Positions 2,131 to 60,911 are shown, counted from the first letter of the whole stretch. The stretch is 63,639 bases of DNA, filler included, from Chrysochromulina tobinii (GCA_001275005.1; 8 parts of 8 records of this genome joined end to end with filler, not necessarily neighbours in it); one strand, 5' to 3'. The notes: generated by a model from the letters alone, not told the origin. Numbers and translations are program-made.

Positions 2131-5100
2131 TCACGATCGCATGCCCGCCGACATGAGCGGATGGCTCACCCCGTGCACGCGCTCGTACTCGGAGACCCCG
2201 GCGACGAAGGTGGCGGCGGCACGCCCAAGCGGGCGCTGCACCAGGTGCTCACCCTCGAGCAGCTTGGCCAAGGGCACGGGCGGCAGCTCGGGGAACTGCC
2301 GATGGATCTCGGAGAGGACTCGAGGCGCGTCCGCCTCGAGGAGCACCTGCCACAGACGATCCTCCCTGGCAGAGTCGAGGAGGAGGACGAGGGTCACCAC
2401 GGACGCATAGAGCGCCTCGTCGCGCACGTTGCGCGGCGGCGTGCCCGCGACGACGCTCGATAGGCGCGCCAGCTCGCGTGCGACGGTGCAGTCGCGCTGC
2501 AACGCGCTCACGAGCTGCTCGAAGAGCCTCGGCTTCGTGTGCCGGTGGGTGAGCACGGCTGCCAGCATCCTGAGCCCCTCAGAGCGGAGTGCCATACCCT
2601 TGTGGAACGGCACGAAAGTTCCGGGCAGCTTGATGAGGGGCAGCTCGAAGGTGCGCGTGTCGGGCAGCGCGCCGAGGAGGATGAGACGATCGACAGCATC
2701 GCTCGCCTCGATCTGCTGCCCAAGCACGCTCGGATCGGCGAGGAGCGCCTGCCACAAGCTGAGGCGCGCCTCGCGGCCGGCGGCGTACTCTTGCAGGAAG
2801 AGCTTCGGCACGCGCACCTGTGGGGAAGCAAGGGCGCCATGGTGAGCGTTTGCATGCAAGGCAGGAGGAGCTTCGGCACGCAAGGGCGCCATGGTGAGCG
2901 TTTGCATGCAAGGCAGGACGAGCTTCGGCACGCAAGGGCGCCATGGTGAGCGTTTGCATGCAAGGCAGGAAGAGCTTCGGCACGCGCACCTCGAGGCCGA
3001 GGCACGAGGCGAGCTCGAGTTGGCCGCGCTGCAGGTACTCAATGGCCATGCGCCCGAGCTGAAGCTTCTCGGCGAGGCCGGCGAGGGGCGGTGCCGTGGG
3101 CAGTTGGGGCAGCAGCAGCGAGCACAGCAACTCGAGGGCCGATCGCTGTAGCCGGAGTAACGGCATCTGCGCCACATCGGAGAGCACTGGGGGCGGCGAC
3201 ACGAGCGCACTATCTCCCGAGCCGAGATCCAGCGACGGTACGCCAGAGGCGAGCTGGCGAGGCGGGATGGCGCCCGCCGCGAGCGCCGCGCGCGCGATCC
3301 ACGCGACTGCGCCGGTGCGCACCAGCAGCTCGAGAGGCGCCACCTCAGCGGGCGCCCGTACCACCCCGGCTGCTTGGAAGAGACGAAAGCATGCCTGCAC
3401 CGCCGCCTCCGCCGCCTGCTCTGACGCTCGCGCCTCCGCGGCCGCTCGCGCCTCCGCGGCACCTGCCTTCTCCCACGTGCCGCTGTTCGCGCTCAGGGCG
3501 CTCGCGCTCACGACGCTGCGAGGGGTGCTGGCAGCGGCCGGGGCGGCCTGGCTCGAATGCTCGCGAGGCGTCATCCCGGGTGTCGTCACCGCCCCGCCAC
3601 GCGGCGAATCGTACAGCGGGTGAGGGCACGCATAGCCTGCCCGCTCGAGCGGGTTGGACAGCATCGCCGCGGGCACCCACGGGACCGTCGCGCTCGCCGG
3701 CGCGAGATCGCCATCTCGCTTGCCGGGTTTGGGGCGCGGCGCTGCCACGGGCAGCTCGCCGAGCGCGCGCCGCACCTGATCTCGCTCGGCGGCCGCTTGG
3801 AGCGTGCGCAGCGAGCGCTCGGCACGACGCACGCCAAGGGCGAGGGTGGCATGCAGGTAGGCGCGTTGGGAGGCGGCGTCGCCGCGGTGGTGGCCCCACG
3901 GGAGGCGCAAGCAGCTGCCCGCATGCAATAGGAGCAGGCGCTCCGCGCTCGCATCCAGAGGGCCATCGAGCTCCATCTCGCTCATGACCTCAAACTCGAG
4001 GTCACGCCGTATGGCCGCCTCGCGATGTCGCGCCGTCTCGAGCGCACTCGAGCCCCCGGGCTGCTGCCCCAACGCCGCCACGGCCGACAGGTTGCTCACG
4101 GTCGACTTTGGGGGTGCCACGTCACCCAGAGCCACGGGCGGCGGGCGCGGTGGCAGCGCGAAGGTAATTGGCTCGGGCGGTAGGCCATGGTCGTCGCCCT
4201 CGGCGACGAGCGTCGCGCGCGCGCGCGTGCCTACGACGGCGAGAGTCGGCGGCGGCGGCAGCTCGAGCCCCAGATCGAGCAACTTCTGACGAAGTGGCGT
4301 GCGCGCGTGCAGGTACTCGAGCGCCGGAGGTACTCCCTCGGCCACCACGCGCTCGAAGATGGCCCGCACGCCAAAGTCGACAAGCTGTTGGGCATCGGGC
4401 ACGCGCGTGGGCATGATGAGGTGCATGAGCCCGCCCCACACGTTGGCGCGCTGCATGGCCACGTGCACCTCGGGCTGGTCACTGAGCGCGAGCAGCCCGA
4501 AGAGCTCAACGCACTTCTCGCGCACGGCAAGTGCCTCGGCCGCGTCGTGCAAGGGTCGCGAGAGCGCGGCCATCATCGCATGCTGAGAGAAGCAGCCGTA
4601 GAGCATCGCCGTCGCCTCGGCCGACGCCGCCTCGAGCGCCGTCGCGGGCGCCGAGCCGCCACCGTCCAAACTCGGCGCCCGCGACGGCGCGCCACCGTCC
4701 AAGCTCGGCGCCCGCGACGGCGCGCCACCGTCCAAACTCGGCGCCCGCGACGGCGCGCCACCGTCCAAGCTGGGGCCGTGCTGGGAGAGCTTCGCAATGC
4801 GGACGAAGAGCTCGAGCGCCGCTGCGCGCACGCCCGCGTCGGCGTCCGAGAGGGCGGGGAAGGCGTGCTGCGGAACCTCGAGCTGCGCGCACATCCGGAT
4901 CCCCGGCTTGCGCCGCAGCATGCCGCCCAGGTGCGTGAGCGCGGTGCACTTGGGCGCGTCGTGCCGCGGCAGCGGCAGCGGCGGCATCCGAGGCGGCCTT
5001 GGAGCCTGACGCTGCAGAGTCGGAGGGCGGCGCGCTCGGATGGAGCCCGCACAGGCTCGCGAGCGCGGGGAGCAGCTCGGCACAATCGCCGCGCGTCAGC

Positions 5101-5604
5101 GTTGGGGGGGCGAGCAGCGTACGTGCCACCACACTCGACGCGCCAGCGCCAGCGCGGTGCGTGGTCTTGCCCAGGGCCGTCGCTCCGGCGGCGTCGGCAG
5201 CCTCGGCGGCCGCGGCAGCGTTGGCGGCTTGCAGCGCTTGGCGCAGCGAGGGGAGCGAAAAGGAACCAGTGCCGTCCTCGCCCAGCATGGCTTCGAGCAC
5301 TGGCTGCAGCGCCGCATGCAACGAAGGAGTCCATCGGTGCGAGCCATCGGGCGCATACGCGCGCCACGCAGCGCGCGGCGTGCTCGCGTCATGCACGAGG
5401 CTGGCGTACAAGGCCGCCGCGCCCGCCGACGACGGCGTGCAGTCCGCTGAGTCGTCCGAGATCGCCCGAGATGTCCGAGAGTTGCCCGAGATGTCGAGCA
5501 GCTCGCCACTCATTCCGCCGTCGAGTAGTGACGCGCCCGCGGGGCTTGCGCTCAGCCGGACGATGACGGACGCCGGGAGCGTCGTGGGGGGCGGCAAGGT
5601 GCCT

Positions 5605-5636
<32 letters not shown>

Positions 5637-11185: not shown

Positions 11186-11455
11186 GCCAGACGACCAGCG
11201 GGCCCCGCGCGGCAAAAGCGGCGTGAGCACAACTTGGCCGCGTGAATGATAATGTACCGGTAACCTGTGGTTTGTGTCCGGGAATCAAAAATCGCCGACG
11301 CGCTCCCCCTGCGCCGATCGACGACCAGCTAGTGGCCAAGGATGACGCCTCAAGGGTTCGGAGGAGGCGGAACGGACGGCGTGTGCAGCCCGACGGGGTT
11401 TTAGCGCTTTTTCTGTGCCACTCACCCACTCTCTCTCTCTCACTCTCTCTAGAGA

Positions 11456-12346: not shown

Positions 12347-13969
12347 ATGGGATCGGCCACAACGCTGCGGCAGCTCGAAGCGCTCATCAGCAGCGTTCGC
12401 ACTGGCGAGCTGAGCCCTAGAGCGCCCACATCAAACGGCGCCTCGGGAGACGACATCAGTGAGGAGTCGTCGCCTCGTGGTCGATTGCTCGCTCGCTTCG
12501 CGTCCATTGCCGCCTGCACTGCTTCTCGTGACCACGACGCTGCCTTTGGCGAGGACGTGCCCCTCGCCGAGCGGCACGCGATGCAGGTCGGGAATGCGGT
12601 GACATCGATGCTGAATAAGTGCCGTCGCTATGGCGCATGCCTCGCCTGCACGCTCAACCCGTGCATTTGCACCCAGATGCCGCCGCTGGCGCTGTCGCAC
12701 CGCCTCTGGGTGGTGACGCACTGCAAGGAGGTGCTGCGCACGACCGCGACAGGCAAACTGCTTCTGCTCGCCCATCCGCGCGCGACGCTCCTCGTCTCCG
12801 GCCTGCCAGCGCACGATGAGGAGCTCGAGCAGCTGTGCCGCCAGCCGACGACCGCCGTGCTCTACCCGTCTCCCGATGCGCTCACGCCCGCCGCGCTGCT
12901 CGAGCGCGTGGCTCGCATTCCAGCCACGGCCTCACCGGCGTCTGGGGCCAGCGGCAGCAGCGCATCGGAGCAGCAGCCGTCCTCGACGGGTCGAGTGCCG
13001 CCGTCGCCTTGCTTGGACATCGTTCTGCTCGACGGTACTTGGAACCAAGTGCGCCAGATCTTTCGCACCTTACCAGACGCGGTGCCCAAGGTGGTCATCT
13101 CACCCAAGGCCGGATCGGAGCGCAGCGTCTTCGGCACCGCCGTGCGCAAGCAAGGAAAGGCGCGTGAGGAGGCTGGGCGCATCTCCACCATCGAAGCGTA
13201 CGCACAGCAGAGGCGCTCGACCTGAGCGAGGCCGATAGCCACTGATGGCCTCCTGATTGCCAAACCGCGTATGGCCTCCTGATTGCCAATCCGCCGATGG
13301 CCTCCTGATTGCCAAACCGCCGATGGCCTCCTGATTGCCAAACCGTCGATGGCCTCCTGATTGCCTATCCGCCGATGGCCTGATTCCCAGTCCACTGATG
13401 GCGTCTCGTTCGCCTCCGATATCAGGTATGCACAGCTGGCTCTCGACCTCGGCGATGCCGCCGACGTCGTCGAGCCGCTCAGCGGCTACCTTGAAACGTT
13501 TATCGCGGAGATGCCACTCAACCGACCGTTGGAGGCCAGAATTCCGCAGGTGAGTGGCGAGCTCCAGCCAAAGTCGCCGACCGACCCGTACCGTCGTCGC
13601 GCGCGGGGCTTGGGCCATGCCCTCGGCAAGGGGCCCATGAGCGTGCGAGGTCGCGATCTGATCAGCAGCTTGTTCCGCGAGCAGCCGCGAGTGTGGGGCG
13701 TGTCGCTGCACTGGCAGCTACACGAGCGAGGACCGGACGCGATGGAGACTGAGGCCGCGCTCATTGCCTCGGGGCCTCTTAAGACCGAGGGCGCGGACGG
13801 CGTGAGCCACGTCGAGCACGGCGTCGAGGTCGCTCGGTGGCCACTCTCGCTGCTGCTGCTCGAGACTGGCGGAGAGAAGTTTTGGAACCGTCAGAAGGAT
13901 CAGAAGAAGAAGCGGTACCGCTCCACAACTCGATGGCTCGCAGGGGAGGCGCAGGCTGCGGCGGCGTGA
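12347..13969 (+). CDS. DTW-domain tRNA-uridine aminocarboxypropyltransferase (TapT/DTWD2-like)
   Basis: Motifs CLACTLNPCIC, HCKEVLRTTATGKLL, VLYPSPDA, IVLLDGTWNQ and RISTIEA. One intron at 13198-13425 joins STIEA|YAQLALDLG. Confidence 0.85.
13198..13425 (+). other. Intron starting with a degenerate copy of the downstream exon and filled with ~24-nt repeats (CCGATGGCCTCCTGATTGCCAAA)
   Basis: Intron start GTACGCACAGCAGAGGCGCTCGACCTG versus next exon GTATGCACAGCTGGCTCTCGACCTC; ends GATATCAG. Confidence 0.85.
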
Positions 13970-23000: not shown

Positions 23001-25288
23001 CGGTCCTCCGGCGCGAGATTGCGCAATACGACGAGGTCAAGGGGCAGATTGGCAGCGCGACGGAGGCGGCGACTGCTGAGCGCACGCGGCTCATGACGGA
23101 GCTCAACGTAGTGCTCGCCGCGCATGAGGCGGCGGCGGCGCGCCACGCGGCGGATGTGGAGGCGGTGCAGTCTGAGCATGAGGCCGCGCTGGACGATCTC
23201 GAGAAGGCGACCGAGGCGCGCCAGCTGCAACTTATTCATGAGTACGATGAGACGCTGGTAAGAGCACCCCCCCTAATTTTGTGCTCGGCCTGCATCCTCC
23301 TCCGAGCATGCATACGCTCACCACGGCGCCCTGTCCTCCCCACCCTCGACCTGAAACCCCCTCCGCCACCCCTGGCCCTGGTTGCAACCCTCCCCACCTT
23401 TTCGCATCCCCCCCCATGCCATCCCCCGTCCCTCGCAGGTGAGCGAGCGCCATCAGCGCGAGACGATGCGGGACGCGATGGCGACCGAGATCCAGAACGA
23501 AAAGTTCCAAAATTTCAACTTCCAGAAAAAGGTCTTGAAGTATGCGGAGGAGAAGCAGGCGATGGTCAAGACACTCAAGGCCAAGGAAACCGAAAGCGAG
23601 CAGCGAGTCGCCGAGGTGCGTGAGCTGCAAGCGACCATCGAGCGGATGCGCGGAGATGCGCTCGAGCGCGAGCGAAGATTGAGCGAGCTCGATAAGAAGC
23701 TGCTCGCGATGAACGGCTCGATGTCGCGGCTCGAGTCTAATAAGCAGCTGCTCGAGCTCAAGGTGAAGGAGCTCGAGCAAGTCCACGAGCCTACCCTCAT
23801 TGAGCTCAAGGAGGTCAAGTCGACCTGCAGCCGCCTCGAGGCCGAGCTAGTCAGGGAGGGCGACAGGCGCAAAGCCGCGGAGGCGCTCGTGCACGAAAGA
23901 GACAACCTGATCAGGTTCGTCAAACGAGATCTCGCAGCATCCGAGGCACAAGTCAAGGATGCGGAATTCGCCCATGTCATCACCATCAACAAGCTCTTCG
24001 GCCTCATCGACGAGCGCGCTGCCTGGACGACGGTTGCGGACTTTGCACGAGCGCGGGACCAACAGGTTCGTCAAGACCAGAGCCGCAACGGCAGGCCACG
24101 TGTCGACAAGTCCGAAGCACAGCTCGACGAGGATGACAAGGTGCGCCAGGAGCTGCTGCGCCAGCGCGACAAGATGCACAAGCAGGTCGAAGATCTCGAG
24201 GCCGAGCTCAAGCGTGCCCGGGCCCAGGGTCGTGCCTCGACCATGCGCCTCTCTGATGAGGCGCTGCGCGCGCATGACCATCTCAACGAGGCGCGGCGGC
24301 AGGTGAGTGACAAGGACCGCGGACCTCCCCACACCTCCTCCCACACCTCCCCACACCGCCCCACACCTCCTCTCACACCTCCCCACACCTCTTCACACCC
24401 CAGCTCACGAGCCTCGCATGACACCCTCATCCGCCCCTGATCGCCGCCCTGCGCCCTTGCCTGAATTGGCAGGTGCCTGAGCTCCAGATGACATCTGATG
24501 ACCCCTGATGACATCTGATGACCCCTGATGACATCTGATGACATCTGATGACCCCTGATGGCCCCTGATGACCCCTGATGACCCCTGATGACATCTGATG
24601 ACTCCTTGATGACATCTGATGACCCCTGATGACATCTGATGACCCCTGATGACAGGTGCATGAGCTGCAGGAGAAGCTCGCGATCGCCTCGAAGCAGCTC
24701 GCGCTGCACGAAGAGAAGGCCAAGGGCTCTGGCGGGCACTCGCGCCATGGCGGGCGGCGCGTGGCGCGAGGAAGCGCGGGCCTCGCCCCTTCGGCGCTCA
24801 GTTCGGCGCTCGCCGCGGCGGAGCATGCGGCACTACAGCAGCAGGCCGAGGCGGTAGCGGCGGCCGTGGCGGCGGCGAGCGAGGACGAGGCGGCGATGAA
24901 CGAGGTTTCCACCGCTGCCGCGCGAGGTCTCTCGATGAGCAATACGTTGCCGGGCTTCCATCGCACCTTCCATCGCACCGGATCGCCTGACGCAGCCGAC
25001 GACCGGCCGCAGACCGCTCCGCCACCGATTGCACCGTTGGCCAGCGTGCCGGCGCCGGCGACCTTGAGGCCGCCGCTCGCCGCACCGGCGCTCAAGCTGC
25101 CGCCGCCGCCAGTGGCAATGCCGCGCGAGGCCCCTCTCGAGCTCACGGCTCTCATGGAGCGCCACGTGATCGAGAATCAGAAGCTGCGCGAGCAACTGCT
25201 CTTCTTCACGAGCAAGGCGTCCAATCCCGTCCAGAAGAAGCTGAGTCGCTCTGCCTCCAGCTTGGGCATGCCACTGCCGCCCGTCTGA
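20010..25288 (+). CDS. CFAP57: CFAP57/WDR65-like flagellar protein (N-terminal WD40 propellers, long C-terminal coiled coil)
   Basis: AYSHGGHLLAASSGNHVLVF…LSGHLAPITALAWAADDAAFSTGGADGMVYTW and LESNKQLLELKVKELEQVHEP resemble CFAP57. Four ORF blocks join in phase 0 through introns 21777-21925, 23258-23438 and 24303-24655. Confidence 0.8.
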
Positions 25289-28161: not shown

Positions 28162-30903
28162 GGCGGCGACGGCGTCGGCAGCGGCGACGGCGGCGGCGGC
28201 GGCGGCGGCAGCGACGGCGGCGGCAGCGACGGCGGTGGTCGCGAGCGTCCCTAATTTGGCAATGGCGAGCGTCCACGACGGCGAGGTCGCGGCTGAGGCG
28301 ATCTGCGACGGCGAGGTCGCGGCAGATGCGATCTGCGCGAACCGTCGGCGCTGTGCCACGTCACCACCGAGCGCCCACGAGCGCATCGCATAGTCCGTCA
28401 GCGGCATGCCAAACCAGGCCAGCATGCGCCCCGCGCCGAACCCATGCTCAATCTCGTTCAAGTGGAGCGTCGCGAGAGTATTCTCCGCACCTGGTCATTA
28501 GAGGTCATTAGAGGTCATTAGAGGTCATTAGAGGTCATTAGAGGTCATTAGAGGTCATTAGAGTATTCTCCGCACCGGGTTTGGGCCAGCGGATGAAAAA
28601 GTCCGCACGGAACGCAGAGGAGCCCAGCGCCGTCGCGAGCACGCGCAGCGTCGCGCGCACCTGATGAGGGAGGCAATCAAGAGCGGCCGTCAAGAGCCAT
28701 CGGGAGCGCCGTCACGAGCGCGCGCAGCGTCGCACGCACCACCTCAACGACGGTCCGCCCCAGCAATCAATTCGCAATCAATTCGCAATCCATTCGCAAT
28801 CCATTCGCAATCCATTCGCAATCCATTCGCAATCAAGTCGCACGCACCACCTCTACGACAGTCCGCCCCAGCGCATCGCCCGCGACGACGCTCTCGAGCA
28901 CCATGGACGTGTGGCGCGCGCGCGCCGGTGGGCTGTGAACGTCGTGATTTGCATGTGTGAACGTCGTGATTTGCAGGAGGGCGGTGTGAGGTGTGAGGTC
29001 GGGCACAGCACTCAATGTCGGTGTGAAGGCGGTGTGAAGGCGGGTGTGAGGTCGGGCACAGCGAATCCATGGCACTCAATGACACTCAAAAAGCATACAT
29101 AGGGCATTCAATGGCACTCAACGGCAAGCACCTGTGCACGTGCGCGTTACATGAGGGCGGTGTGAAGTCGGACACGGCCACCAGAGCCTCATGTCCCTCG
29201 AGCAACAGCAGCCGCTCCATGCAGTTGGTGCGTGCCGCGAGCACCTACACGCGCGCGCCGTCATCAGAGGTCATCAAAAGTCATCAGAGGCCATCAGAGG
29301 TCATCAGAGATCATCATAAGTCATCAGAAGTCATCAGAGGTCATCAGAGATCATCAGAAGTCATCAGAGATCATCAGAAGTCATCAGAGATCATCAGAAG
29401 TCATCAGAGGTCATCAGAAGTCATCAGAAGTCATCAGAGGTCATCAGAGATCATCAGAAGTCATCAGAGGGGAGCACCTGCACGCGCCCGCCGTTGATGC
29501 AGAGCACTGCGAGTTCCTGATCATATGGCACCTGACCCTCAATGATGAGCGTGCGGGAGCCGCCCGCGGCAGCGCGACCCGACTTGAAGATGGACTCGGC
29601 CTGCGTGAGGATGAGCTCCTCGAACCAACGGGCGCGGCTCACCTGCCAAGCTCAGATGGGCCTGCATCATTAGGATGACCTGCATCATTAGGATGAGCTC
29701 TGCGAACCAACGGGCGCGGCGCACCTCACGCACTGACGCATCACCCGCGCTGAGAGCCTTCACGGGCGCATAGGCCCACAAGGAGCCATTCGAGAGGTTG
29801 GGAGGGTTGGCAAGACGAGGCCTGGGCTCGCCGCTCGGCATTGGTACGAACCGAAGCGGCTCGATCTGGTCGAGGCTCAGGCAGAGCAGAGGTCATTAGA
29901 GGCAATTAGAAGCCATCAGTGGTCATCAGTGGTCATCAGTGGTCATCACACCTGGTCGAGGCTCAGGCAGAGCAGGCCGCCGCTGTTGGTACCCATCGTG
30001 GGCTTGAGGACAAGGCGCTTGTGGTGGCGCAGGAGCACCTAAATGTCCGCAGAGGCCATCAGGGGCACTTCAAAGGCCGCAGAGGCCATCAGGGGCACTT
30101 AAAAGGCCGCAGAGGCCATCAGGGGCGCTTCAAAGTCCGCAGAGGCCATCAGCGGCGCAGCGAGGGGATAATGGCAAGGCGCCGTGGCGAGCGACTCGTA
30201 ACCGCCGCCGCCGCCGCCGCCGCTGAGCATCGTGCTGCTGGCGCCCATGCCGAGGGTGTCGCTAGCCGTTGTGGGTACAGATGCGATCGGGCTGGTACGC
30301 TTCTTCGACTTAACGGGGAGGCGATAGTCATCAGAGGTCATCAGGAGGGGAACACACCTCCAGTCGCAGCTCACAGCACGGGTCTGAGGGCGCGAGGAGC
30401 GTGCGGGAGGTCGTCAGAACGGGCACGTACTGCCCGTCGTCGTCCACCGCAAAGTCGGCCTCCGCGCCCACGTCGACGCCACCCATCGGGTCGTCGACGA
30501 AGGAGCACGTGTGCAGAGTCGGTACGATGAGCGCGATCGGCACTCCCAGCCCCACCCAGTGCTCCTTGCGCAGCGCCTTGTCGTCCGACCAAGCCCCCGC
30601 ATCGCACCGGAAGGACGCTCGCTTCTGGGCCGCGTGAAAGCATCCAATCAGCTGGGACAGAGAGCTCGCGTAATTGGCTCCTTCCGCGCTGCTCGGCCCC
30701 TTCCACGACGCATCAGCCAGCCCAAACAGCAGGCTATGGCGGTTGGCGCAAAGGTCTTCCTCGAATTGGTCCGCGACCGTTTTCGGCGACGCAGCGCCGT
30801 CAATGAATATGTCTTGGTACATGTTCGAGTGTTGCCCAGCGGGCGCGCGCGCACACCTGCACTTCGCCCACCGTCTCGTGTGGGACCTTCCCGATCGGGA
30901 CAT
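28162..30903 (-). CDS. Intron-rich ATP-grasp-fold protein, 3'-truncated; not seen as a single ORF
   Basis: Splicing introns 29866-29951, 29643-29724, 29245-29477, 28933-29131, 28661-28847 and 28491-28575 gives RLVLKPTMGTNSGGL…LIIEGQVPYDQELAVLCINGG…FRADFFIRW…LHLNEIE, the ATP-grasp motif order (KPxxG; ExxxxxE; RxD; NE). Structure between 30039 and 30357 is unresolved. Confidence 0.7.
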
Positions 30904-31061
30904 GTTGCAGATTTCCAGATTTATCAAGTTCGAGTTCCGATGAAGTTAGCGCGCTCTGTCGAGGCTTTACGGTTAACAACTTTCGGCCCATCAGTCAGTT
31001 GGTGAAGCTCTGTAGTCTCGCATCCCGAAACAAACTATGCGCGTTGTTATGAGCGTTGACG

Positions 31062-32476
31062 ATGCATCCCGCCGTGGACGTCCGGCTCGGGCAGCTGCGC
31101 TGGGCCGCGTTGCATGTGCATCCCGCATTCGACGCCGATCATCCGAATTGGGACGAAGCCAACTGCTCGGGACTGTTGCTCACGCACGTGGCCGTGCCGA
31201 CGGCCATCCAGCCCATCTGGCACGGCTCCACCACGGGTTCGCTCCGGCGGTTGCTCCAACCGTGCCGCCGCGCGTGCTCCCTCGGCCAGGTCGGCTGCAC
31301 CACTCGGCAAGGGAGCGTGATCGGACGTTGCAATGCGACACACGGCGTCGAGTACGCCCACCGTCTCCCGCGGCCGGGCGAGCCGGCCGTTGTGAGCTTC
31401 AACATGCCATCGTCGAAGCACGTTGAGGCCGTGCTTGCAGCGATCGCGGACGCGCGACCGCGGTTGTACTTTGAGTTTGAGGCGGCAGGGCACGCGCGCG
31501 TGCCACGAGATACCATCCTCAAGGGCGTCGATGGCATGATGTCGTTTCAGCGCGATGCGCTCGTGCCGTACCCGTACTTGAGCGCCTCGCAGCTTTGGGA
31601 AACCTCGCTGCGCCGTCCAGAGCGTGGGTTTCATGAGCGCCGACCCGCCGTGGCCGCATTCGTGTCCAACTGTGGCTCCCGGTATCGCAACGAGGTGGTC
31701 GAATTCTTACGAAACGCGTCGATCGAGGTCCACTCATACGGCGCGTGCTACCGGCCACGCCGCGCGCAGCAGGACGGAGGTGCCAACAGCTCCACGTTTG
31801 ACGCTCGCGAGTTCCGCAAGTCTCAGGGCTTTGAGTCTGGGGTGAAGCCCGAATGCTTGCACTATCGCGCGATCCTTGCGGTGGAGAACTCGGCGTGCAC
31901 GGACTACGTGACCGAGAAGCTCATACAGGTGGTCGGGTGCGGGGCGGTGCCGATCGTACGCACAGTTAATGGGCTGCCGGATTACAACGGCCTGTACGGC
32001 AGGTTCCCCATGCTGGATGGAGCACGTCTTGATGCAGCCTTTGCATCCTCCGTGCGCCAAGTGCTGACGGACCAGCGCACCTTTGAGAGCTACATGCCGT
32101 GGCACACTCGGACGTGGGTGCCCAGCCACGAGGTCATCGTCCAAAAGGACATGCGGAACCCGCACTGCACGCTACTTGATCTTATCACCAAGAGTCGCGA
32201 GACGTCGGGGGCTCTGTCGCCCTCGCACCTCGCGTCGGACGCACCAGGTGTGTCCTCTGATGACCCCTTGAGGCCCTCATCATCACCCTTTGTTGACCCC
32301 TTGATTACCCTTTATGACCGCAACGCCTCGCGTCCGTTTCACCAGGTGGCGGCGGAAGGTGTGAGACGGGCTCCAAGATGCACACACCACGGCCCCAGCA
32401 AAGGTTTGCACGCTCGTTTGCGGGTGGCTCCTACGCGACAGCGGAAGAGGTTGCGCGGAATGGCTCGCTCGGGTGA
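31062..32476 (+). CDS. Alpha-1,3/4-fucosyltransferase (glycosyltransferase family 10)
   Basis: AAFVSNC, VHSYGAC and YRAILAVENSACTDYVTEKL…GAVPIV. A probable intron at 32248-32345 moves the stop to 32476; the unspliced ORF ends at 32570. Confidence 0.85.
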
Positions 32477-34071: not shown

Positions 34072-37000
34072 ATGTCACTGGCGCTCGCGTTCGTGCTCGT
34101 CGCCCTCGGCCAGTCGTGCACCGACCGCTCGAACGAGTGTGGCACATGGGCGGCCCTTGGCAAGTGCTCCAAGGATCGGAGCCACATGTCCAAGGAGTGT
34201 CCCTACTCGTGCAAAACGTCGTGCGGTGGCAAGGGCGCGGCGCTGGTGGCTGCGATTGCGCTCGAGCCGGTGCCGAAGGCCGACCAGTATAGACAGCTGG
34301 GCGACATTTACGCGATCGAAGGCAAGATGGTGGCGTCCGAGCAGGCGCTGCGCCTGGCCACCGAGATCGCACCCACCGACAGCGAGATCCAACGGCTTCT
34401 CGGCACGGTCGTGAAGCGATTGGGCGACGCCGAGGGAGCGCTCGCTTTGTTCCGCAAGGCTGTGCAGCTCAACCATTCGAACGCATGGGCGCACGTCAAC
34501 ATCGGCAACGCGCTCACTCCGGGCGATGAGTGCTTCGCAGCGTACCGCGAGGCCATCCGTGTCGACCCGACCATGACGAACGCGTACATCAGCCTGGGCG
34601 ATAAGCTCCTCATGGGAGGCCGCGCGGAGGAGGGCTTCGCGACCCTACGCTCCCTCGCGGCCTTCTCGGCGCAGCATGATCCCGGCCGTCTCTACGAGAA
34701 GCTCGCCGAACACCAAAGGGTCGTCGAGGCTGCCTACGCCCAGACCCTCGCTGACGCCAGGCGCGGCCCCCAGACCTCTGCAGTGGCTCGCAATTGGATC
34801 GAGTACACGCGAGAGGCGCTAGGCGACGACAAGTGCCGCAACCCGCGCACTCGGATGGAGTGTGAAGAGAAGTGCCTGACGCCCGCATGCATTGAAGGAC
34901 TCGAAGAGGCGCTTCAACATGTCACCACCCATGTGCGCGTGGACGAAGCGCCGCATGGCGAGGAGTACATGTATGTACCGCCGCTCTGACGACCTCTGAC
35001 GACCTCTGCCGACGATCTGATGAGCTCTGATGAGCTCTGATGAGCTCTGATGAGCTCTGATGAGCTCTGATGACCTCTGCCAAGCTCTGATGAGCTCTGA
35101 CGGAGCGTACGTGTATGCACCGCCGCCACTGATGAGCTCTGATTGCGACGGATGAGCCCTTGATTGCGTCCTTCATCAGGTATCGCGTCATCGGCCAGTC
35201 CGAGAGCCAACCTTCCCTGATTGCGACTGATGACCCTTGATTGCCGCCTTCATCAGGTATCGCATCATCGGCCAGTCCGAGAGGCAACCTTCCCGTGCGC
35301 CGCTTGAGCCGGCGGTTCTCAAAGGAGCCGTTGATGAGGCGTGGGCGCCGTACCGGTGGAGCGCTTCGTCTCGGGCGCTCACCGAGGCAGCGGGCGAGGA
35401 CGAAGTCAAAGTGACGGTGACACAGCGCGGCAAGTTTGAGGTGTGAATAGATTAGATGAGCCCTTGATTGCCGCCCTCATCAGGTGTCGGAGAACGCAAC
35501 CACTCGAGCTCATCTCCATTCCCTGATTGCAACTGATGACCCTTGATTGCGTCCTCCATCAGGTGTCGGAGAACGCAATCACGCGAGCTCCGACGAGCTC
35601 CATTCGCGTCGCGGATCTGGTCGCGCTGCTTCACTCGAAGCGCACGCTCAATACGACGCTCTACACGCGCCAGGTTCGTCAATTGCATGCTGATCGGCCG
35701 CCCCTGCGATGGATGGCCTCTCGCCTTGCATGCTGATGGCCTCCCTGATTGCATGCTGATGGCCTCTCGCCTTGCATGCTGATGGCCTCCCTGATTGCAT
35801 GCTGATGGCCTCTCGCCGTGCATGCTGATGGCGCGCCCTGTGCTCAACACGACGCTTCGTCCAACCCTTATTTGCAGGCAACTCTCGACATGATGCCGCG
35901 CTTGCTTTCGACGGTGGCGTCCACGCCGTGGCTGGCGAACTTGCGACTGCAGGCGAGCCTGATTGCATCCCTCATTGCGAGCCTGAGTGCATCCCTCATT
36001 GCATGCTGATTGCGCTCCAGCATCGTCGGCTAGTTGCATGCTGATGGCCTCCCTCATTGCATGCTGACACATGGTTGCATGCTGGCACCGCAGACCATCA
36101 CCATGTGGCTGGGCGACGGCCATTTCCACAACACGCTCCACAACGACCCATGGGACAATTTCCTCTGCCAGCTCCAAGGCACGCAACGGATGACCTTAGA
36201 TGACCTCTGATGACCTCTGATGACCTCTGATGACCTCTGATGACCTCTGATGACCTCTGATGACCTCTGATGACCTCTGATGACCTCTGCCAGCTCAAAG
36301 GTACTCTGCTCGGGCCGCCCGCGTGCGAGTGCTCACCACGGCCCACTTACCCCACACAGGTACGAAACACGTACTGCTCTGGCCGCCCGATGCGCGCCCT
36401 CTCCTGTATTATGCCAAGCGCCAAAATACGTTCGCCGAGTACGCGCCCTCGACGGGGGAGAAGCGGCACCGTCGTGTCATCGAGACTGACAACACCGCCG
36501 GAGTCAACATCGCCAAGGTCGCCTTTGCACAGATGGCCTCTGATCGCCTCTGATGGCCTCTGATCGCCTCTGATCGCCTCTGATGGCCTCTGATGGCCTC
36601 TGATCGCCTCTGATCGCCTCTGATTGCCTCTGATGGCCTCTGATGGCCTCTGATCGCCTCTGATCGCCTCTGAGTCCCTCTGATCGCCTCTGATGACCTC
36701 TGATTGCCTCTGATCACCTCTGATGGCCGACTGAAGGCAGTTGCCGCTCTTTCGGCACGCCTTCACATGCCAGTGCTCATCACGGCGCCCTGTCCCGCAG
36801 GTCGACTTTGGACAGTTCCCGCTCTTTCGGGACGCTTTGAAGCAGATGCGGTACGCGAAGCTCGAGCGCGGCGACTGCTTCTTCCTCCCTCGCGGCTGGC
36901 ACCACGTCGTCTTCTCCGTGGTGGGGACGCCGGCGAATTTCAATTTGGCGATCAACTTCTGGTTCAATCGCGAAGCTACCCTCAAGGGCGCGAAAGAGGG

Positions 37001-37598: not shown

Positions 37599-38790
37599 AT
37601 GTCGCCGCCCAGCCTGAAGGCTGAGGCCTTCCCCCCGCCCGTGCTCGACGCCATGCGCAAGCTCGACACGAAGAGCAACGAGCCCAGCCTCATTCGCCAG
37701 CTATACGTGCTGGCGCTGCTCAACCGCGACGAAGCGATGCGGCGGATGCACTTCGGGCTACCACCCGACGTGGTGCTCGCGCAGCAGCCACCCTCGCTGC
37801 TCGCGCTCGCGCGCCCGCCGGCACCCTCCAGCTTCCAGTCGGCCGGCTTTCACCTTAAGCCGTCCACGTCCACGGGAGTGCGCCCTCGGCGCAGCCGCGT
37901 CTTCGGCGCGATGAGCGGCGCGGCCGAGAAGGGCGCCGACGCCGTCCAGGCCATCAGCGCGGCCCGCGAGCGCGCGATCCCGCACTTTCCGCCCGGGTAC
38001 GGCGTGCCGCCCATCGGCCACGAGCGTGTGTCGACCCGCGCGCAAACCGCCGACCCGTTCTCGTCGTCAGCGCCCACACGCGCGCCCACGTTCACAGCGC
38101 CCACATCGGCATCAGCGTCCGGGCTCCACTCCACTCCACTCCACTCCACGTCTCCGAGCGCCCTTCTCGCTCGACCGCCGCTGCGCCCCGCCGACCTCGA
38201 GAATGCGTACCCCGTGCGCCTGAGCCTCTATGAGCCGCCGTCGCCCGAGCACCGATTGGGAGCCTCATCAGGCAGAGGGAAGCCCAGGCTGCCCACCATG
38301 GCGCTACCGGTACGCGAGCTGCTCGCCACGCCTCCGATGCGAGCTCCGACGCTCCCAGCATGCAAGTGCTCATCACGGCGCCCTGCTCTCCCCACAGGTA
38401 CGCGAGCTGCTCGCCACGCCTCCGATGCGAGCTCCGACGCCCGGCAAGACGCCTCTCGTCGGGTACGCGAGCTACGCCTCCCTCGCGTCTCTCGAGGCCG
38501 CCGCGAGTGAGAGCGCCGCCGTGGGCGCCGGCCGGCCGATGGCCTCGCTCAGCCAGGAGCAGCGCCAGCAGTTGAGCGGCAGCGGCGGCGGCGCCGGTCG
38601 CGCGGGCTTCTCCTTTGGCGGCGCGTCGACGGCTCCTAATATGGGTGGCGCGCAGAAGCCGAGCTTCGACGCGTGGGCGGCGGCCGAGGAGGACCTCAAG
38701 TATCGAGCTGAGCAGGAGACGCGACGGGAGGAGATGCGCACTGTGAAGACCTCGATCGGCCGTGATGACGTGGGCACGATCGGCTTCTGA
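37599..38790 (+). CDS. Hypothetical low-complexity protein with one 88-nt intron
   Basis: ORFs 37590-38510 and 38230-38790 join via intron 38310-38397 (MALP|VRELLATPPMRAPTPGK). Confidence 0.65.
38310..38397 (+). other. Minimal, apparently young intron: 43-nt perfect copy of the downstream exon plus a 45-nt acceptor cassette
   Basis: GTACGCGAGCTGCTCGCCACGCCTCCGATGCGAGCTCCGACGC + TCCCAGCATGCAAGTGCTCATCACGGCGCCCTGCTCTCCCCACAG, followed by the identical 43-mer. Confidence 0.85.
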
Positions 38791-39157
38791 CGAAACTACC
38801 AGATCGCGTGATCTCAAAGCGTCTGAGGTGATGCCGTGGCATCCTTGGATGGCGGTGAATGTGATGTGTGTCACTGTCAACTGTCTTAAATCATATAACC
38901 GCAAACTCAATTGCTCAAACTCTGTCTGTGATTTCGGAACATACAGGTTACAGCACAACCGTCGCCCTTCTAAACCGCCCCCGTGCGGTACCCGCCATGG
39001 TGGTACAGTGTCTGTGTCTGTGTGAATGTGCGTCTGTGTGATTTCTTAACACAGCCGTCCCATCGGGAATGCCGCGAGTTTGGAGTTTGCAAGTTTGTGA
39101 CGCCGCGCAGCGCGAAGAAATCGCGACAGGGGCTCGACGCGACCGCGCTCGAGGCTT

Positions 39158-40250: not shown

Positions 40251-40284
<34 letters not shown>

Positions 40285-43200
40285 GGTGGACAGTGACGAT
40301 CCATTCGCAGGGCTCTTCTCCGGCATAGCGCCGCCGCCGGCTACGTCACCGTCGGTCCCGCGGCGAATCTCGTTAGACCGTCCCGCGAGTAGCAGCAGCG
40401 GCACTGGCGGGCTCGATCCAAATTTGGAAAGTCGGGCCGATCTCATCGCACCTACCAAATTTGGGTCAGAGATGGTCGTCAGTCGGTCGGAGGAGGCACA
40501 TACGATCACGTGTGTCGAGCAGATGGCGCCGGCGGCGCAGGTACCGACCTACCTTCCCAAGATCCCGTCCGTCCGTGCCGCGTCCCCCTTGCGACTGCAT
40601 GCATGTGCTCACCACGGCGCGTCCTCTTCCCCACAGGAGGCCATCCGAATGCTCCAAAAGGGGTGTCAGGCTCTCAAGTTTGGCAGGCAGGGCAAGCCTC
40701 ACTCGGTGCGGCGCTGCGTCCACTGAGTGCGACTGAGTGCGACTGAGTGCGACTGAGCGCGTCCGCGTGCGTTGCATGCTGATTGCCTCCCCCATTGCAT
40801 GCTGATTGCCTCCCTCATTGCATGCTGATTACCTCCCCCATTGCATGCTGATTACCTCCCTCATTGCATGCTGATTGCCTCACCCATTGCATGCAGGTGC
40901 TCTTCCGCCTGTCCGAGGACCTCCAGACGTTATCCTCATTGCATGCTGATTGCCTCCCCCATTGCATGCAGGTGCTCTTCCGCCTGTCCGAGGACCTCCA
41001 GACGTTATCCTGGGAGAAGAAGGGCCTGCAGGGTCTCGGCAAGGACATGGCGATGGGTTTCGGCAAGATGATGGGGGGTGGGTTCGCGAAGAGCGCCGAC
41101 ACGGCGCGCCGAGTCGACCTGAGTACTTTGGTGGAGGTGCTGCAGGTGCGTGCTAGCCTTGATGGCGTCTGATGGCGCACGATGGCGTCTGATGGCGTCT
41201 GATGGCGTCTGATGGCGTCTGATGGCGCCTGAGTGCGTCTCTCATCAACTGCTCGTCGTGCTTCAGGGCCCTGAGAGCAATGTCATTCGACGCAACCGCG
41301 GCGAGAAGCCGATTTCGTCCGCGGACGCGGGTGGCGGCACGGTGGAGGGCGACTACTCGTCATACAAGGAGGCCAAGGAGAACTTGTGCCTCTCGCTGCT
41401 CTTCGTGAGCAACGAGAAGGATGCAGACCGTGACTCGCTCGATATCCAGTGAGAGAGCGACGAGGGCTTTGCATGATGATTGCATGCTGATTGCATGCTG
41501 ATTGCATACTGATTGCATGCTGATTGCATCTTTGAGCACATGCTGATTGCACCCTTCATCAGGTGCGAGAGCGACGAAGCATTCATCAGCTGGGTCGTGG
41601 GGTTCCAAGCCCTCATGGCGCTGCATGAGGCGCTGAGCGGTGGGTTCGATGCGCTCTCGAGCGTGCTGCATGCTGATTGCATGCTGATTGCATGCTGATT
41701 GCATGCTGATTGCATGCTGATTGCATGCTGATTGCATGCATGCTGAGCGGTGGGTTCGATGCGCTCTCGAGCGTGCTCTCTGAGTGCATGCTGATTGCAT
41801 CTCTGAGGACGTGCTGATGGCCCCCTTCATCAGGTGGGGCTGAGGGGCTTGCGAGTGTCCGTGTCGAGCGCGAGGCCGCCCGTGCGCGGGCCCTCGCGCG
41901 GAGTGCGCCGCAGGTACGCAACTGATGACCTCTGATGACCTCTGATGACCTCTGATGACCTCTGAGGACCTCTGAGGACCTCTGAGGACCTCTGAGGACC
42001 TCTGAGGACCTCTGAGGACCTCTGAGGACCTCTGAGGACCTCTGATGACCTCTGATGGCCTCTGATGGCCTCTGATGGCCTCTGATGACCTCTGATGACC
42101 TCTGATGACCTCTGATGACCTCTGATGACCTCTGATGGCCTCTAATGACCTCTGATGACCTCTAATGACCTCTGATGACCTCTGATGGCCTCTAATGACC
42201 TCTGATGACCTCTGATGACCTCTGATGACCTCTGATGACCTCTGATGACCTCTGATGACGTACGCGGGCCTCGCTCGGAATGCGCCGCAGCTCTACCAAG
42301 CGATGCTGGAGCGCGAGGAGAAGCAGATGCAGCAGATGATGCGAGAGGCTGAAGAGGAAGCCAACCGGCAGTATGAGGCCTCGCGTGCGCGCGCAGAAGC
42401 GGCGGATCGTCAAGCTTTCGAAGCGAGGGTGAATGCCACTGATGACATCTGATTGCATCTGATTGCATCTGATTGCATCCCTCATCAGGTGCGTCGCGAG
42501 GCAGAGGACCTCTACTTTCCTCTTGATCGCCTTTGATGACCTCCTGATTGCCTCCCTCATCAGGTGCGTCGCGAGGCAGAGGACCAGGCGAACGCGCTGC
42601 TCGAGGCTGCTCGTAAGGAGGCTGAGCTTGCGCCGTTAGCAGGCGTCTTCGAAGGGCAGAGGTACTAAGTGCCACTGATGACGTCTGATTGCATCTGATT
42701 GCATCCCTCATCAGGTGCGTCTTCGAAGGGCAGAGGTACTAAGGAGGTTGATTGCCATCTGAGTGCATCGGATGGCCTCTGATGGCCTCTGATGGCCTCC
42801 CTCATCAGGTACCGGATGTCCGCTGATGTCCTCTGATGGATGTCCTCTGATGGCCTCTGATGACCTCTGATGACCTCTGATGACCTCCCTCATCGACTGA
42901 TGGCCTCTGATGGCATGCTGATTGCCTCCCTCATCAGGTACTATGGAGGCGGCTCAATGCCCCTCGGGCTGCCTGATCCCTTCTCTCCAGGCCTCTCGTC
43001 CGCAATGGCGGCGGCGGCGGCGGCGATGGCGGCGGGAGATCCGTCCGCCATGATGGCTCTCCGCGCGAGATTAGCCGAGGTTGAGGAGGAGAACCGACGG
43101 TTACGCGCCAATGGCGGCGGGCGGCGTGGGGGGGGCGGCGGCGTCGAAGAGGAAGAAGACGAGCAGGTTGTGCTCGATCGCAAGTGCTTCGAGGCGTATG

Positions 43201-44326
43201 AGGCCGCCCGCGTCGCGATGATGGCGACGCTCGAGGCTGGCAAGTTCCCCACAGCCGCCGAGTACGCAGAGCGTGATCTGATGAGCTCTGATGGCCTCTT
43301 AATCAAGTCTGATGATGAGTTCTGATGATGATCTCTGATGATCTCTGATGACCTCTAGTGACCTCTAGTGACCTCTGATGACCTCCCTCATCAGGTATGC
43401 GGCGCGTGATCTGCACCTGTACCGGCTCTCGGATGCGGACCTCCAAGCGGAATATGCGCGCTACACGGTAACTCCGCGGATGAGCTCTGATGACCTCTGA
43501 TGACCTCTGATGAGCTCTGATGACCTCTGACGACGTCCCTCATCAGGCGCTGTACCTCGCGGACGAGACGAAATCCATCGTGCGCGGGATGGCGGAGATG
43601 ACGGTCATCAAGCTTGGGGAGATGGTCGACAAGCCGCAGGCGAAGCGCATTCAGATGATGGCGCGGCAGGTAAGCGAGGGCCCTCTAATGGACCCCTGAT
43701 TGCACTCTGATGGACCCCTGATTGCCCTCTGATGGCGCGGCAGGTAAGCGATGGCCCTCTAATGGACCCCTGATTGCACTCTAATGGACCCCTGATTGCC
43801 CTCTGATGGCGCGGCAGGTAAGCGATTGCACTCTAATGGACCCCTGATTGCCCTCTGATGGCGCGGCAGGTAAGCGAGGGCCCGGGAGAGGACCCTTTGG
43901 TGACCCCTCTGATGGCCTCTCTGATGGCCCTCTGATGGACCTCTGATGGACCCCTGATTGCACTCTGATTGCACGCTGCTGAGTGCGACCGATTGCGCGA
44001 CTCATCAGGTGATGGAGGCGCGGCTTATGTCGCCCTGATGACGCTCTAATGACGCCCTGATGACACCCCGACGGCGCCCTGATGACGCCCTGATTGCCTC
44101 CCTCATCAGGTGGAGGAGGCGCGGCTTGCGAATGAGGCTCGCGAGAGGGAGCTCGCCGAAGGCGCGGCGGCGCGCGAGAAGCGTGCAGCGCTCGATGCGA
44201 TGAACCGCAGGGCATACGATGCATGCGTACCGGTATGGAAGGAGCTCAAGGCGCGCGCCGTGGCGGGCGTCGTGGCGGGTGCCGACGGCGGCGGCGGCGG
44301 GGGCGGGGGCGGCGGCGGCGGCGGGG
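39158..44326 (+). CDS. Large coiled-coil / GGGM-repeat / PH-domain protein, 3'-truncated, ~11 introns
   Basis: Spliced PH domain of PLC/PRAF type: MLQKGCQALKFGRQGKPHS|VLFRLSEDLQTLSW…RRVDLSTLVEVLQ|GPES…LSLLF…SLDIQ|CESDEAFISWVVGFQAL. Introns: 40541-40636, 40706-40971, 41146-41266, 41449-41562, 41640-41833, 41914-42290, 42429-42563, 42662-42937, 43262-43394, 43468-43546, 43670-44109. Confidence 0.78.
41922..42258 (+). repeat. Intronic 10-nt tandem array (CTGATGACCT / CTGAGGACCT / CTGATGGCCT / CTAATGACCT), about 33 copies
   Basis: Directly visible. Related arrays occur at 24485-24652, 28494-28560(-), 29260-29470(-), 35017-35100, 36190-36288, 36535-36725, 43275-43385 and elsewhere. Confidence 0.95.
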
Positions 44327-59112: not shown

Positions 59113-59212
59113 NNNNNNNNNNNNNNNNNNNNNNNNNNNNNNNNNNNNNNNNNNNNTTAATTAATTAANNNNNNNNNNNNNNNNNNNNNNNNNNNNNNNN
59201 NNNNNNNNNNNN

Positions 59213-60911
59213 CACTCGCGCTGTTGGCAAGCAGCTCGCGCGCCTTGGGCAGGAGCCGACGCGCGTACCTGTGGGGAAGAGAGAGAGAGAGAGAGCGGGC
59301 GGGCGCCGTGGTGAGCACGTGCAAGCAGCTCGCGCGCCTTGGGCGGGAGCGACGCGCGCACCGGCCATCGGTGCCCTTGATGTCCTTGGCCACCGCCTGG
59401 GAAATGAGCGACGAGATTTGGGGAGCGGGTGGGCCGTTGAGGCTGAGTGAACGGCCCGCGGAGAAGATCGATTCCTCAAAGAGCCCCACGTCGAGGGCTG
59501 CGAGGGCGGCGTGCTGCCATAGCTGCCAGTTGTCACTGCGCAGCGCGCACGCCTGCCGGAAGGCGTAGAGAGCCTCGCGCTTCATCTTCTGGCGCGCAAA
59601 CAAGCCGCCGAGGGACGACCATGCCTGGTAGTGTGTCGGATCGAGTGTGATCACCTTGCGCATGTCGGCGAGCGCCGTATCGAGCGCATCGAGCTTGAGT
59701 GAGCAGACCGCGCGGCAGTACCATGCCTCCGCGTAATGGCTGCGCGCGCCGAGGGCATCGGACAGGTGGGTACGGGCTTCTTCCCACTGCTCGAGGCGCA
59801 TTGCGTTCGAGCCGAGCTTGAGCTTCGCGCGCGCGAGATGCTGTTTGGAGAGGGTCCACGCATGCTCGTAGTGCTCAATCTCGCCGGTGAGATCGCCCAG
59901 GTGCATCCACATCGTGGCCGTAGGTGCCACCTCGAGCTGATGGCGCACCGCCCTGAGGCGGGGGAAGGCGGGTCTCATTAGTGGTACTCAGAGGTCACCC
60001 GAGGCCATCCGAGATCATCAGAGGTCATCCGAGGTCATCCGAGGTCATCAGAGGTCTTCGGACAACCAAGCGCTGAGGTCTCATCTTTTTTTTTTGGGGG
60101 GGGGGCAGGCGCACCTCCTTGGTTGACCCGCATTGCTTTTCGAGGTGCAGTCGCGCCTCCCAGTGCACCGGCTCATTCGGCTGGGCACTCGCGCTGTTGG
60201 CAAGCAGCTCGCGCGCCTTGGGCAGGAGCCGACGCGCGTACCTGTGGGGAAGAGAGAGAGAGAGAGAGAGCGGGCGGGCGCCGTGGTGAGCACGTGCAAG
60301 CAGCTCGCGCGCCTTGGGCGGGAGCGACGCGCGCACCGGCCATCGGTGCCCTTGATGTCCTTGGCCACCGCCTGGGAAATGAGCGACGAGATTTGGGGAG
60401 CGGGTGGGCCGTTGAGGCTGAGTGAACGGCCCGCGGAGAAGATCGATTCCTCAAAGAGCCCCACGTCGAGGGCTGCGAGGGCGGCGTGCTGCCATAGCTG
60501 CCAGTTGTCACTGCGCAGCGCGCACGCCTGCCGGAAGGCGTAGAGAGCCTCGCGCTTCATCTTCTGGCGCGCAAACAAGCCGCCGAGGGACGACCATGCC
60601 TGGTAGTGTGTCGGATCGAGTGTGATCACCTTGCGCATGTCGGCGAGCGCCGTATCGAGCGCATCGAGCTTGAGTGAGCAGACCGCGCGGCAGTACCATG
60701 CCTCCGCGTAATGGCTGCGCGCGCCGAGGGCATCGGACAGGTGGGTACGGGCTTCTTCCCACTGCTCGAGGCGCATTGCGTTCGAGCCGAGCTTGAGCTT
60801 CGCGCGCGCGAGATGCTGTTTGGAGAGGGTCCACGCATGCTCGTAGTGCTCAATCTCGCCGGTGAGATCGCCCAGGTGCATCCACATCGTGGCCGTAGGT
60901 GCCACCTCCGG
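59213..60911 (-). CDS. TTC27: Two tandem near-identical copies of TTC27/Emw1-like TPR exons (partial gene)
   Basis: MWMHLGDLTGEIEHYEHAWTLSKQHLARAK…LDPTHYQAWSSLG…ALRSDNWQLWQH resembles the C-terminal half of TTC27. Copies lie at ~60186-60911 and 59213-59936, with introns 60242-60336, 59937-60114 and 59269-59361. No N-terminal half is visible. Confidence 0.75.

Follow-up and report, generated by a model that had tools for sequence, protein, structure and literature searches.

Introns built in part from copies of the neighbouring exon in Chrysochromulina tobinii, and a possible template-switching route of intron gain

Introduction

The origin of most new spliceosomal introns remains unsettled; recent surveys attribute them to transposons. 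We analyzed a stretch of 63,639 nt from the freshwater haptophyte Chrysochromulina tobinii (GCA_001275005.1; eight contigs joined by N, hereafter the window), for which an earlier note, made from the sequence, had described introns with one end copied from the adjacent exon. In these introns, the exon-edge copy provides one splice site and a filler shared with other introns of the alga provides the other. They constitute a real, splice-verified and unusually clear signature of intron gain.

The closest described systems are the introners (in this section the cited articles are represented by their accessible parts). As in the window, a shared sequence gives one splice site and duplicated exon sequence the other, in many genes and with exact removal by splicing (PMC9860276, PMC12130899). 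The introners co-opting a splice site from the duplication include family 5 of marine Chrysochromulina (PMC9860276, PMC12130899), and Emiliania fam24 (5 copies) co-opts the 5′ site, carries the 3′ site and has 10-bp terminal direct repeats, its mechanism being listed as unknown (PMC12130899). However, published introner duplications are of 3–9 bp (4 bp in Chrysochromulina sp.; PMC9860276), whereas those of the window are variable, from 2 to 43 nt. Furthermore, the introner pipeline requires similarity to both intron ends (PMC12130899), whereas here one end is a locus-specific exon copy of 15–43 nt. C. tobinii stands at 0 introner families in the survey of 8,716 genomes (PMC12130899), and this class of introns can therefore be missed systematically. 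Unlike introners, up to half of an intron of the window is exon copy, and one and the same satellite family is found in both polarities.

The new introns of Daphnia pulex are polymorphic and have repeats of 4–12 bp around AT-rich inserts, most of which have no known source (PMC4202315). They share with the introns of the window an exon-edge direct repeat at the far intron end and the addition of inner repeats in later rounds (PMC4202315), but the repeats described here are longer and the fillers are homologous intron ends. In contrast to the Daphnia polymorphism, no empty allele was found among six members at intron 38310 or among the sister strains at 13198 and 32248 (introns are named by their first position). 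In the tandem duplication model of Rogers, an exon duplication makes the intron and splicing restores one copy, as in the window (PMC3443670); both sites come from a duplicated AGGT and, as the model is given there, no foreign sequence is involved, whereas filler is present in all the strong cases reported here. The same review names, as a proposed model, intron transposition by reverse-transcriptase template switching, in which, as proposed here, existing introns are the donors, orientation is sense and no transposase is involved (PMC3443670). That route moves whole introns, whereas we observed half-introns, together with an exon duplication attributable to an out-of-register return. Rogers and Bendich (2025) reported direct repeats of 4–30 bp near the borders of 213 mixed introns (PMC11782384); those repeats are “at or near” the borders, whereas the copies of the window are in exact junction register, within one lineage and with shared fillers. 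No description of the pattern in haptophytes was found in the literature searched, most subscription papers lying outside the search, and the C. tobin genome paper mentions introns once, at about one per gene.

Sequences and Scoring

The 14-3-3 and fucosyltransferase proteins of the window group with C. tobinii proteins in 90% clusters, which places the sequence in the C. tobinii/parva complex. All counts refer to 34 hand-modelled introns on four of the eight contigs, including the 17 independent cases of the earlier note. Two further introns were taken from L003, a sequence extending the third contig of the window upstream. Exon-edge copies were scored by an alignment anchored at the splice junction, with a threshold combined score of at least 10, and 1089 mismatched intron/exon pairs served as the control for terminal copies. 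Introns 30039 and 59953, with uncertain ends, were retained in the set of 34 but dropped from the 32-intron and filler-family analyses, and 60242 was excluded as a duplicate of 59269. Copies of the two filler families were listed over a sequence of ~70 kb. The gene model 2040–11200 has a break near 4.5–5 kb. The RNA evidence consists of the contigs of four RNA runs rather than raw reads.

One metagenome scan yielded three loci, corresponding to two near-identical assemblies and one sister strain spanning only 32248. A motif scan of a genome collection gave a single 1.4-kb contig (JBEILM010000436.1), and motif scans of viral contigs gave no match. At 85% likeness, a lake DNA run yielded short pieces only, none across a listed joint; one piece of 256 nt, with 21 differences, overlapped the 3′ part of intron 36179. 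With the last Cupin exon as query, no close homologue was found.

Exon-Edge Copies

A terminal exon-edge copy scoring at least 10 was found in 13 of the 34 introns, versus 1 of the 1089 mismatched controls, and the claim that intron ends copy the adjacent exon was thus borne out. The strong cases (table 1) are one-sided in 12 of 13, and the copies range from 43 nt with no differences to 37 nt with eight, in agreement with the long, variable duplications, perfect to decayed, that had been described. All 13 belong to the 17 independent cases contained in the 18 intervals first listed, 59269 and 60242 being one intron in the two copies of a 726-nt duplicated segment (4 differences). Three listed introns have weak copies (28933, 10 nt; 41146, 9 nt; 42662, 6 nt; control tail 0.6–2.7%), and the 5-nt copy of 41640 is at chance level. 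None of the other 17 modelled introns reaches 10, the best being 28661 at 9.5. The listed cases lie on three contigs rather than the four stated; an unlisted inner case on a fourth contig, 24473, has an exon-start copy and satellite directly behind an older acceptor. Intron 38310, with its perfect 43-nt copy, is the youngest-looking case.

All 32 well-bounded introns have GT or GC at the start of the next exon or AG at the end of the previous one (11/14/7/0, Fisher p = 0.009), and the next exon begins with GT in 23 of the 32.

The imperfect exon-start copies (59269, 13198, 43262, 36518, 24473, 41449, 28661, and 29643) all differ from the exon at intron positions +3 to +6 (8/8, chance ~0.0014). 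These differences may reflect selection to distinguish the donor from the identical site that splicing restores.

Table 1. Introns with exon-edge copies and related structures in the window and in L003
Position	Strand	Structure	Evidence
38310..38397	+	Perfect 43-nt copy of downstream exon start (0 differences) and acceptor module (~38356–38397)	Sequence, frame
2818..2989	-	Perfect 25-nt exon-start copy and acceptor module, amplified to three tandem copies of a 52-nt unit	
59269..59361	-	41-nt exon-start copy (3 differences) and acceptor module with (CT)n tract	
60242..60336	-	Second copy of the 59269 intron within the 726-nt segmental duplication, non-independent	
29643..29724	-	35-nt exon-start copy (3 differences) and 18-nt repeat filler; 7-nt microhomology at join	
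28491..28575	-	Perfect 16-nt exon-start copy and 10-nt satellite; 4-nt microhomology	
29866..29951	-	Mirror type: donor from satellite, acceptor from perfect 24-nt copy of upstream exon end	
41914..42290	+	Mirror type: 34-unit satellite and 31-nt copy of upstream exon end (4 differences)	RNA-spliced
29245..29477	-	Two-sided: 6-nt exon-start copy, satellite, 17-nt exon-end copy (2 differences)	
32248..32345	+	Decayed 27-nt exon-end copy (7 differences), fucosyltransferase gene	
13198..13425	+	Decayed 37-nt exon-start copy (8 differences), DTW-domain gene	
36518..36800	+	Layered: 15-nt exon-start copy (2 differences), satellite, older 38-nt exon-start copy, acceptor module	
41449..41562	+	15-nt exon-start copy (1 difference) and 11-nt satellite	RNA-spliced
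43262..43394	+	19-nt exon-start copy (3 differences) and satellite	RNA-spliced
28661..28847	-	Unlisted in the earlier note: 11-nt exon-start copy and inner 60-nt copy of the intron-free junction (25 nt of upstream and 35 nt of downstream exon)	
40706..40971	+	Inner acceptor and 40-nt exon-start copy	Inner acceptor (40896) in 1 RNA run, outer in 3
42662..42937	+	Layered: inner copy of exon end and intron start, resuming at CAG|G-like exon site	
24303..24655	+	Compound: GT-AG unit 24303–24472, then 15-nt exon-start copy and satellite 24473–24655	
34971..36359	+	Five further TPR/Cupin_8 introns (34971, 35441, 35674, 35953, 36179); three with inner exon-edge copies	
L003 2255–2331		Exon copy (38 nt) and module, upstream of the window's third contig	
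L003 6559–6639		Exon copy (~17 nt) and module, upstream of the window's third contig	

Splicing and Assembly

Intron removal gives open reading frames (ORFs) of 628, 970, 388, 1533, 469, 366, and 894 codons in seven genes, so the claim that removal restores the frame stands for these; for the TPR gene, the test is uninformative. The RNA contigs confirmed the predicted junctions in the gene at 39158–44300, in which all 11 modelled introns correspond to GT-AG joints of the predicted length, each found in one to four runs. These joints support 41146, 41449, 41640, 41914 (a 377-nt joint in two of the four runs), 42662, and 43262. The TPR/Cupin_8 gene has one RNA contig in which 34970 is joined to 35257 and a second with exactly the predicted 429 nt between 35438 and 36799, and all six of its junctions are matched by a 634-aa protein that comes from a contig of 2,227 nt; the splicing of 36518 is thus supported by RNA contig size and by this full-length protein. 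Collinearity with homologues supports 28491, 28933, 29245, 29643, 29866, and 13198. The removal of 32248 gives a 438-aa fucosyltransferase, the C-terminus of which matches an annotated C. tobinii protein. For 38310 and 2818, frame restoration is the only support for splicing, and for 59269 nothing is decisive; these three cleanest module cases have no RNA joint in the contigs of the four RNA runs.

Two other assemblies match 28162–40108 at 99.98–99.99%, and their 17 differences in 39900–42021 all fall within a glycine repeat. Contigs of a DNA run span 29452–29941 with 0 differences and cross 29643 and 32248 unchanged. They break exactly inside the 43-nt repeat, as expected of a true repeat longer than the word size. 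Assembly stutter, which had been named as a possible source of the duplications, is thus unlikely.

Inner AG|GT points in 40706–40971 and 24303–24655 could permit two-step (recursive) splicing. The 191-nt form of 40706, found in one RNA run, would add 25 in-frame codons. Two introns of the TPR/Cupin_8 gene, 35953 and 36179, are GC-AG introns, and both are matched by the full-length protein (P0080).

Shared Fillers and Layering

The filler had been described as non-homologous, and this did not hold: nine independent introns share a module of ~40 nt, and about 14 share words of a satellite. The module, which provides the acceptor, gave 12 matches in 10 introns, all of them sense and all intronic over the ~70 kb. 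Its type copy (38356–38397) consists of a palindromic start, a branch-point-like word, a pyrimidine tract and CAG, and in 38310, 59269, and L003 2255–2331 the intron is made of the exon copy and the module with nothing else. The second filler family is a satellite of 10–11 nt, with words common to 11–14 of the 34 introns. The Emiliania genome paper is said to describe intronic tandem repeats of 10–11 bp. The commonest shared 7-mers are likewise strand-polarized, 13 of 14 occurring antisense in at most one intron; the exception is an inverted word at the acceptor. The satellite is found in both polarities, after an exon-start copy (28491 and 43262) and before an exon-end copy (29866 and 41914). 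Stops are present in all three frames in 25 of the 34 introns.

The joins between copy and satellite have a summed microhomology of 22 nt over 11 joins, versus 3.7 expected. Introns of one gene resemble each other at their 3′ ends more than introns of different genes do (likeness of 21.6 vs. 15.2, p = 0.0006), and the best partner of a 3′ end lies in the same gene in 11 of 32 introns (5.7 expected, p = 0.026). Inner copies of exon edges were found in 11 of 32 introns, compared with 1 of 96 controls. An inner acceptor followed by an exon-start copy is present in 34971, 35441, 40706, 42429, 43670, and 24303, and copies of the intron-free junction lie inside 28661, 36179, and 42662. The inner copies that contain intron sequence need an unspliced template.

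In the satellite introns (e.g., 43375–43394), the satellite's own 7-mer recurs as its reverse complement at the acceptor end, which, judging from these letters, could fold into a terminal hairpin.

Lineage Distribution

The tested intron positions are empty in homologues at 39–61% identity, some of them on contigs of 5–60 kb, and filled in all the sister strains. All 22 homologues at 39–61% identity read through the DTW junction (13198), whereas four homologues at 94–100% identity run into the intron and stop. Members of the read-through clusters come from contigs of 60, 29, 19, 11, and 9 kb. The genes of these relatives are probably intron-free at the tested positions, because, in the same collection, the ORFs of this organism extend into its introns. 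In a homologue on a 56.6-kb contig (P0169), which ends at this junction, an apparently shared 13198 intron was rejected: the tail is the exon in another frame, and was treated as a frameshift. For the Cupin gene, six of seven homologues cross all six junctions; they include a C. parva paralogue, the cluster of which has 581-aa ORFs on contigs of 34 and 16 kb. The gene at 28–30 kb has three true homologues, all collinear, among five matches, the other two (P0187 and P0189) being rejected for lack of homology over the gene. One of the three, P0190, is collinear over seven junctions, whereas P0186 and P0188 cross 29866, 29643, and 29245 and then leave the alignment elsewhere; P0190 also reads through L003 6559–6639.

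Intron 38310, with its copy, is present in all six members of its cluster, 13198 in the four homologues at 94–100% identity and in the four cluster members read, and 32248 in the sister strains. The introns therefore look lineage-specific, given the read-through in homologues at 39–61% identity, but fixed. Thus, of the two expectations for orthologues, absence from distant homologues was found and absence from sister strains was not, and the description of the process as ongoing found no support in these strains.

Mechanism and Alternatives

We suggest, with a probability of roughly 0.5, that new introns arise through a template-switching copying enzyme, which duplicates the exon edge beside a copied half of an intron. 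DNA synthesis, by a repair or replication polymerase or possibly by a reverse transcriptase acting on pre-mRNA, would stall in an exon and jump, by microhomology of a few bases, onto the end of an existing and often nearby intron, the acceptor or donor half of which would be copied. It would then return to the original template 2–43 nt out of register, such that an exon stretch, X, is doubled and the structure X-filler-X results. An allele of the exon-start type would survive only if X starts with GT or GC and the filler ends with AG; in the mirror type, AG would have to close X and GT to open the filler. In either case, one X and the filler would be removed precisely by the spliceosome. Survival of X-filler-X, even with a short or decayed X, predicts the GT/GC or AG found in the flanking exons of all 32 introns. 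Recurrence at the edges of existing introns would produce layered introns, in which the intronic copy decays, and each new intron could be the donor for the next, so that introns would propagate themselves without a transposase. We infer that duplication and filler arrived in a single event, with an intron end as donor and microhomology guiding the switch. The fuller proposal, a self-propagating intron gain free of transposase, in which half-introns are copied into exons and the out-of-register return supplies the splice site, is more tentative, and we consider it possible but somewhat doubtful.

Several observations weigh against the template-switching proposal. The sample is of 34 hand-modelled introns containing the 17 cases that prompted the analysis, a long terminal copy is missing in 21 of the 34, and two of the nine module introns (23258 and 40541) are also without one. 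The null for microhomology is lenient, since boundaries were set by hand and chance matches are absorbed into the copy, which approximately doubles the expectation; moreover, exon bases can become part of the repeat unit through subsequent slippage, and 29643 contributes 7 of the 22 nt. The within-gene likeness of 3′ ends leans on one gene, and whole-intron best partners are not enriched within genes (8/32 vs. 5.7, p = 0.24). The inner acceptor of 40706, at 40896, is used in RNA and is an intermediate of the kind needed if introns are remodelled. The contig type of the relatives was deduced from size and from intron-entering ORFs rather than from the DNA of those genes. Three relatives have apparent breaks near tested positions: P0115 begins near 34971 and exits the alignment 1–2 codons before 36179, in P0188 the exit comes ~4 codons after 29245, and in P0087 an insertion lies ~5 codons after 13198. 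These breaks may represent introns gained independently nearby, or older introns that have shifted. No intron-free allele was found at high identity, and the intron-less relatives (39–61% amino-acid identity) are so distant that uniting gain and duplication in one event is a matter of inference.

The most plausible alternative, in itself unlikely, is that slightly older lineage-specific introns, whose positions were first gained by another route, were remodelled, either by duplication of the acceptor and exon start followed by loss of the upstream part, or by repair of a break in the intron from RNA spliced across the junction, with half of the intron replaced by exon sequence. Inner acceptors with exon-start copies are indeed common, and the one used in RNA (the 191-nt joint) exposes an exon-start copy beginning with GT; the inner copies of intron-free junctions, the two mirror-image types both ending at the junction and the apparent introns of the three relatives are consistent with the same route. 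Nevertheless, inner junction copies are equally expected from two successive X-filler-X events, the second filler at 24473 is not copied from the end of the first unit, and the preceding exon ends with AG in 5 of 13 exon-start-type introns versus 14 of 21 others. Remodelling does not predict GT/GC or AG in the flanking exons of all 32 introns, and it still requires a mechanism spreading the module and satellite to new positions. A second alternative is a non-autonomous introner with long, variable target duplications, moved by a retro-element or an HUH transposase; the module would then be either a very small element or the reverse-transcribed tail of an intron, its 3′ end fixed at the AG and its 5′ end ragged. 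We consider this improbable as well. The module is homologous across unrelated genes (nine introns) with a nearly fixed 3′ end, and a splice site is co-opted in the 13 strong cases; known introners likewise carry one site and take the other from the duplication, and they are present in marine Chrysochromulina genomes (accessible parts of PMC9860276). Long and variable duplications are known for long interspersed nuclear elements (LINEs; PMC9977147, in part), and the pattern of non-long-terminal-repeat and Penelope elements (variable duplication, fixed 3′ end, ragged 5′ end) fits the module introns, but not the mirror type, which retains the donor half. Duplication within the module family varied from 0 to 43 nt, rather than being short and family-specific. 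Intergenic insertions should be tolerated, but none of the 12 module matches in the ~70 kb, a small sample, was antisense or outside an intron. At least two unrelated filler families are present, resembling neighbouring introns. Inverted ends are not possible in module introns, since one end is exon copy, and the satellite introns end in a 7-nt inverted word. Replitrons have short terminal direct repeats, an RG target and a Rep transposase, the duplications of Replitron-1 are variable and C. tobinii is reported to have a Replitron-like locus (PMC10288648, as far as its accessible part goes). By inspection, no terminal direct repeat was seen on the module.

We regard it as very unlikely that the introns arose from staggered double-strand breaks filled in without a template or by local expansion, as in Daphnia, or from an AGGT tandem duplication with later repeats, as in the Rogers model. 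A staggered break characteristically leaves direct repeats at the opposite ends of an insertion (accessible parts of PMC4202315 and PMC3443670), and the exon-end copy of 41914 begins with GT and ends with AG, the intron starting with the same six letters. However, the fillers are common to several loci and strand-polarized, and a plain break with de novo fill-in leaves shared, sense-oriented fillers unexplained; the repeats reach 43 nt, as against 4–12 bp in Daphnia (PMC4202315, in part), and the one-sidedness of 12 of the 13 strong cases implies that an inner AGGT is not the origin of both splice sites. The mechanism first put forward, a staggered break or template switch plus fill-in, is thus retained in part: the duplication that donates one splice site stands, and the microhomology suggests a template switch, whereas the plain staggered break is disfavoured. 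Finally, there is hardly any likelihood that the structures are assembly stutter or unspliced repeats. The evidence consists of assemblies and contigs rather than long reads or raw RNA reads, and 38310, 2818, and 59269 are without an RNA joint. Against this, the sequence is reproduced by two other assemblies and a DNA run, the 11 RNA joints are exact, most copies have fixed differences and sister-strain ORFs enter the same copies.

If true, half-intron copying would explain most introns of the lineage, with the divergence of the two copies as a built-in clock, and would escape current introner screens. Young introns of this kind would record their own history, the doubled exon being the target, the divergence the relative age and the filler a pointer to the donor intron. 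With the genomes and transcriptomes available for the genus, computation alone can separate the rival mechanisms.

Other Features of the Window

The TPR gene (59217–60925) contains a near-identical tandem copy of its own 5′ part (726 nt, 4 differences), and the two copies are joined via a satellite intron with its donor in a homopolymer run. This copy may stem from a partial duplication of the gene, of recent date, or from a mis-join. Positions 32790–32930, which lie beyond the coding exons of the gene models, have an X-satellite-X structure with GT and AG ends, possibly a mirror-type intron of an untranslated region. The 1.4-kb contig JBEILM010000436.1 has a satellite intron of this alga within a Gemmatimonas metagenome bin, and is likely a contaminant of that bin. 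In the sister strain (L002 1722–3195), ~1.5 kb of different, AT-richer sequence is found just after the fucosyltransferase gene in comparison with 32483–32560 of the window, and this strain also differs near 30800–30890. The entire contig at 44427–53934 is dominated by a minisatellite family of 23–24 nt, in arrays of 1.7–3.3 kb, and the sequence at 62395–63639 resembles, by eye, what we take to be part of the coding region of a long-terminal-repeat retrotransposon.

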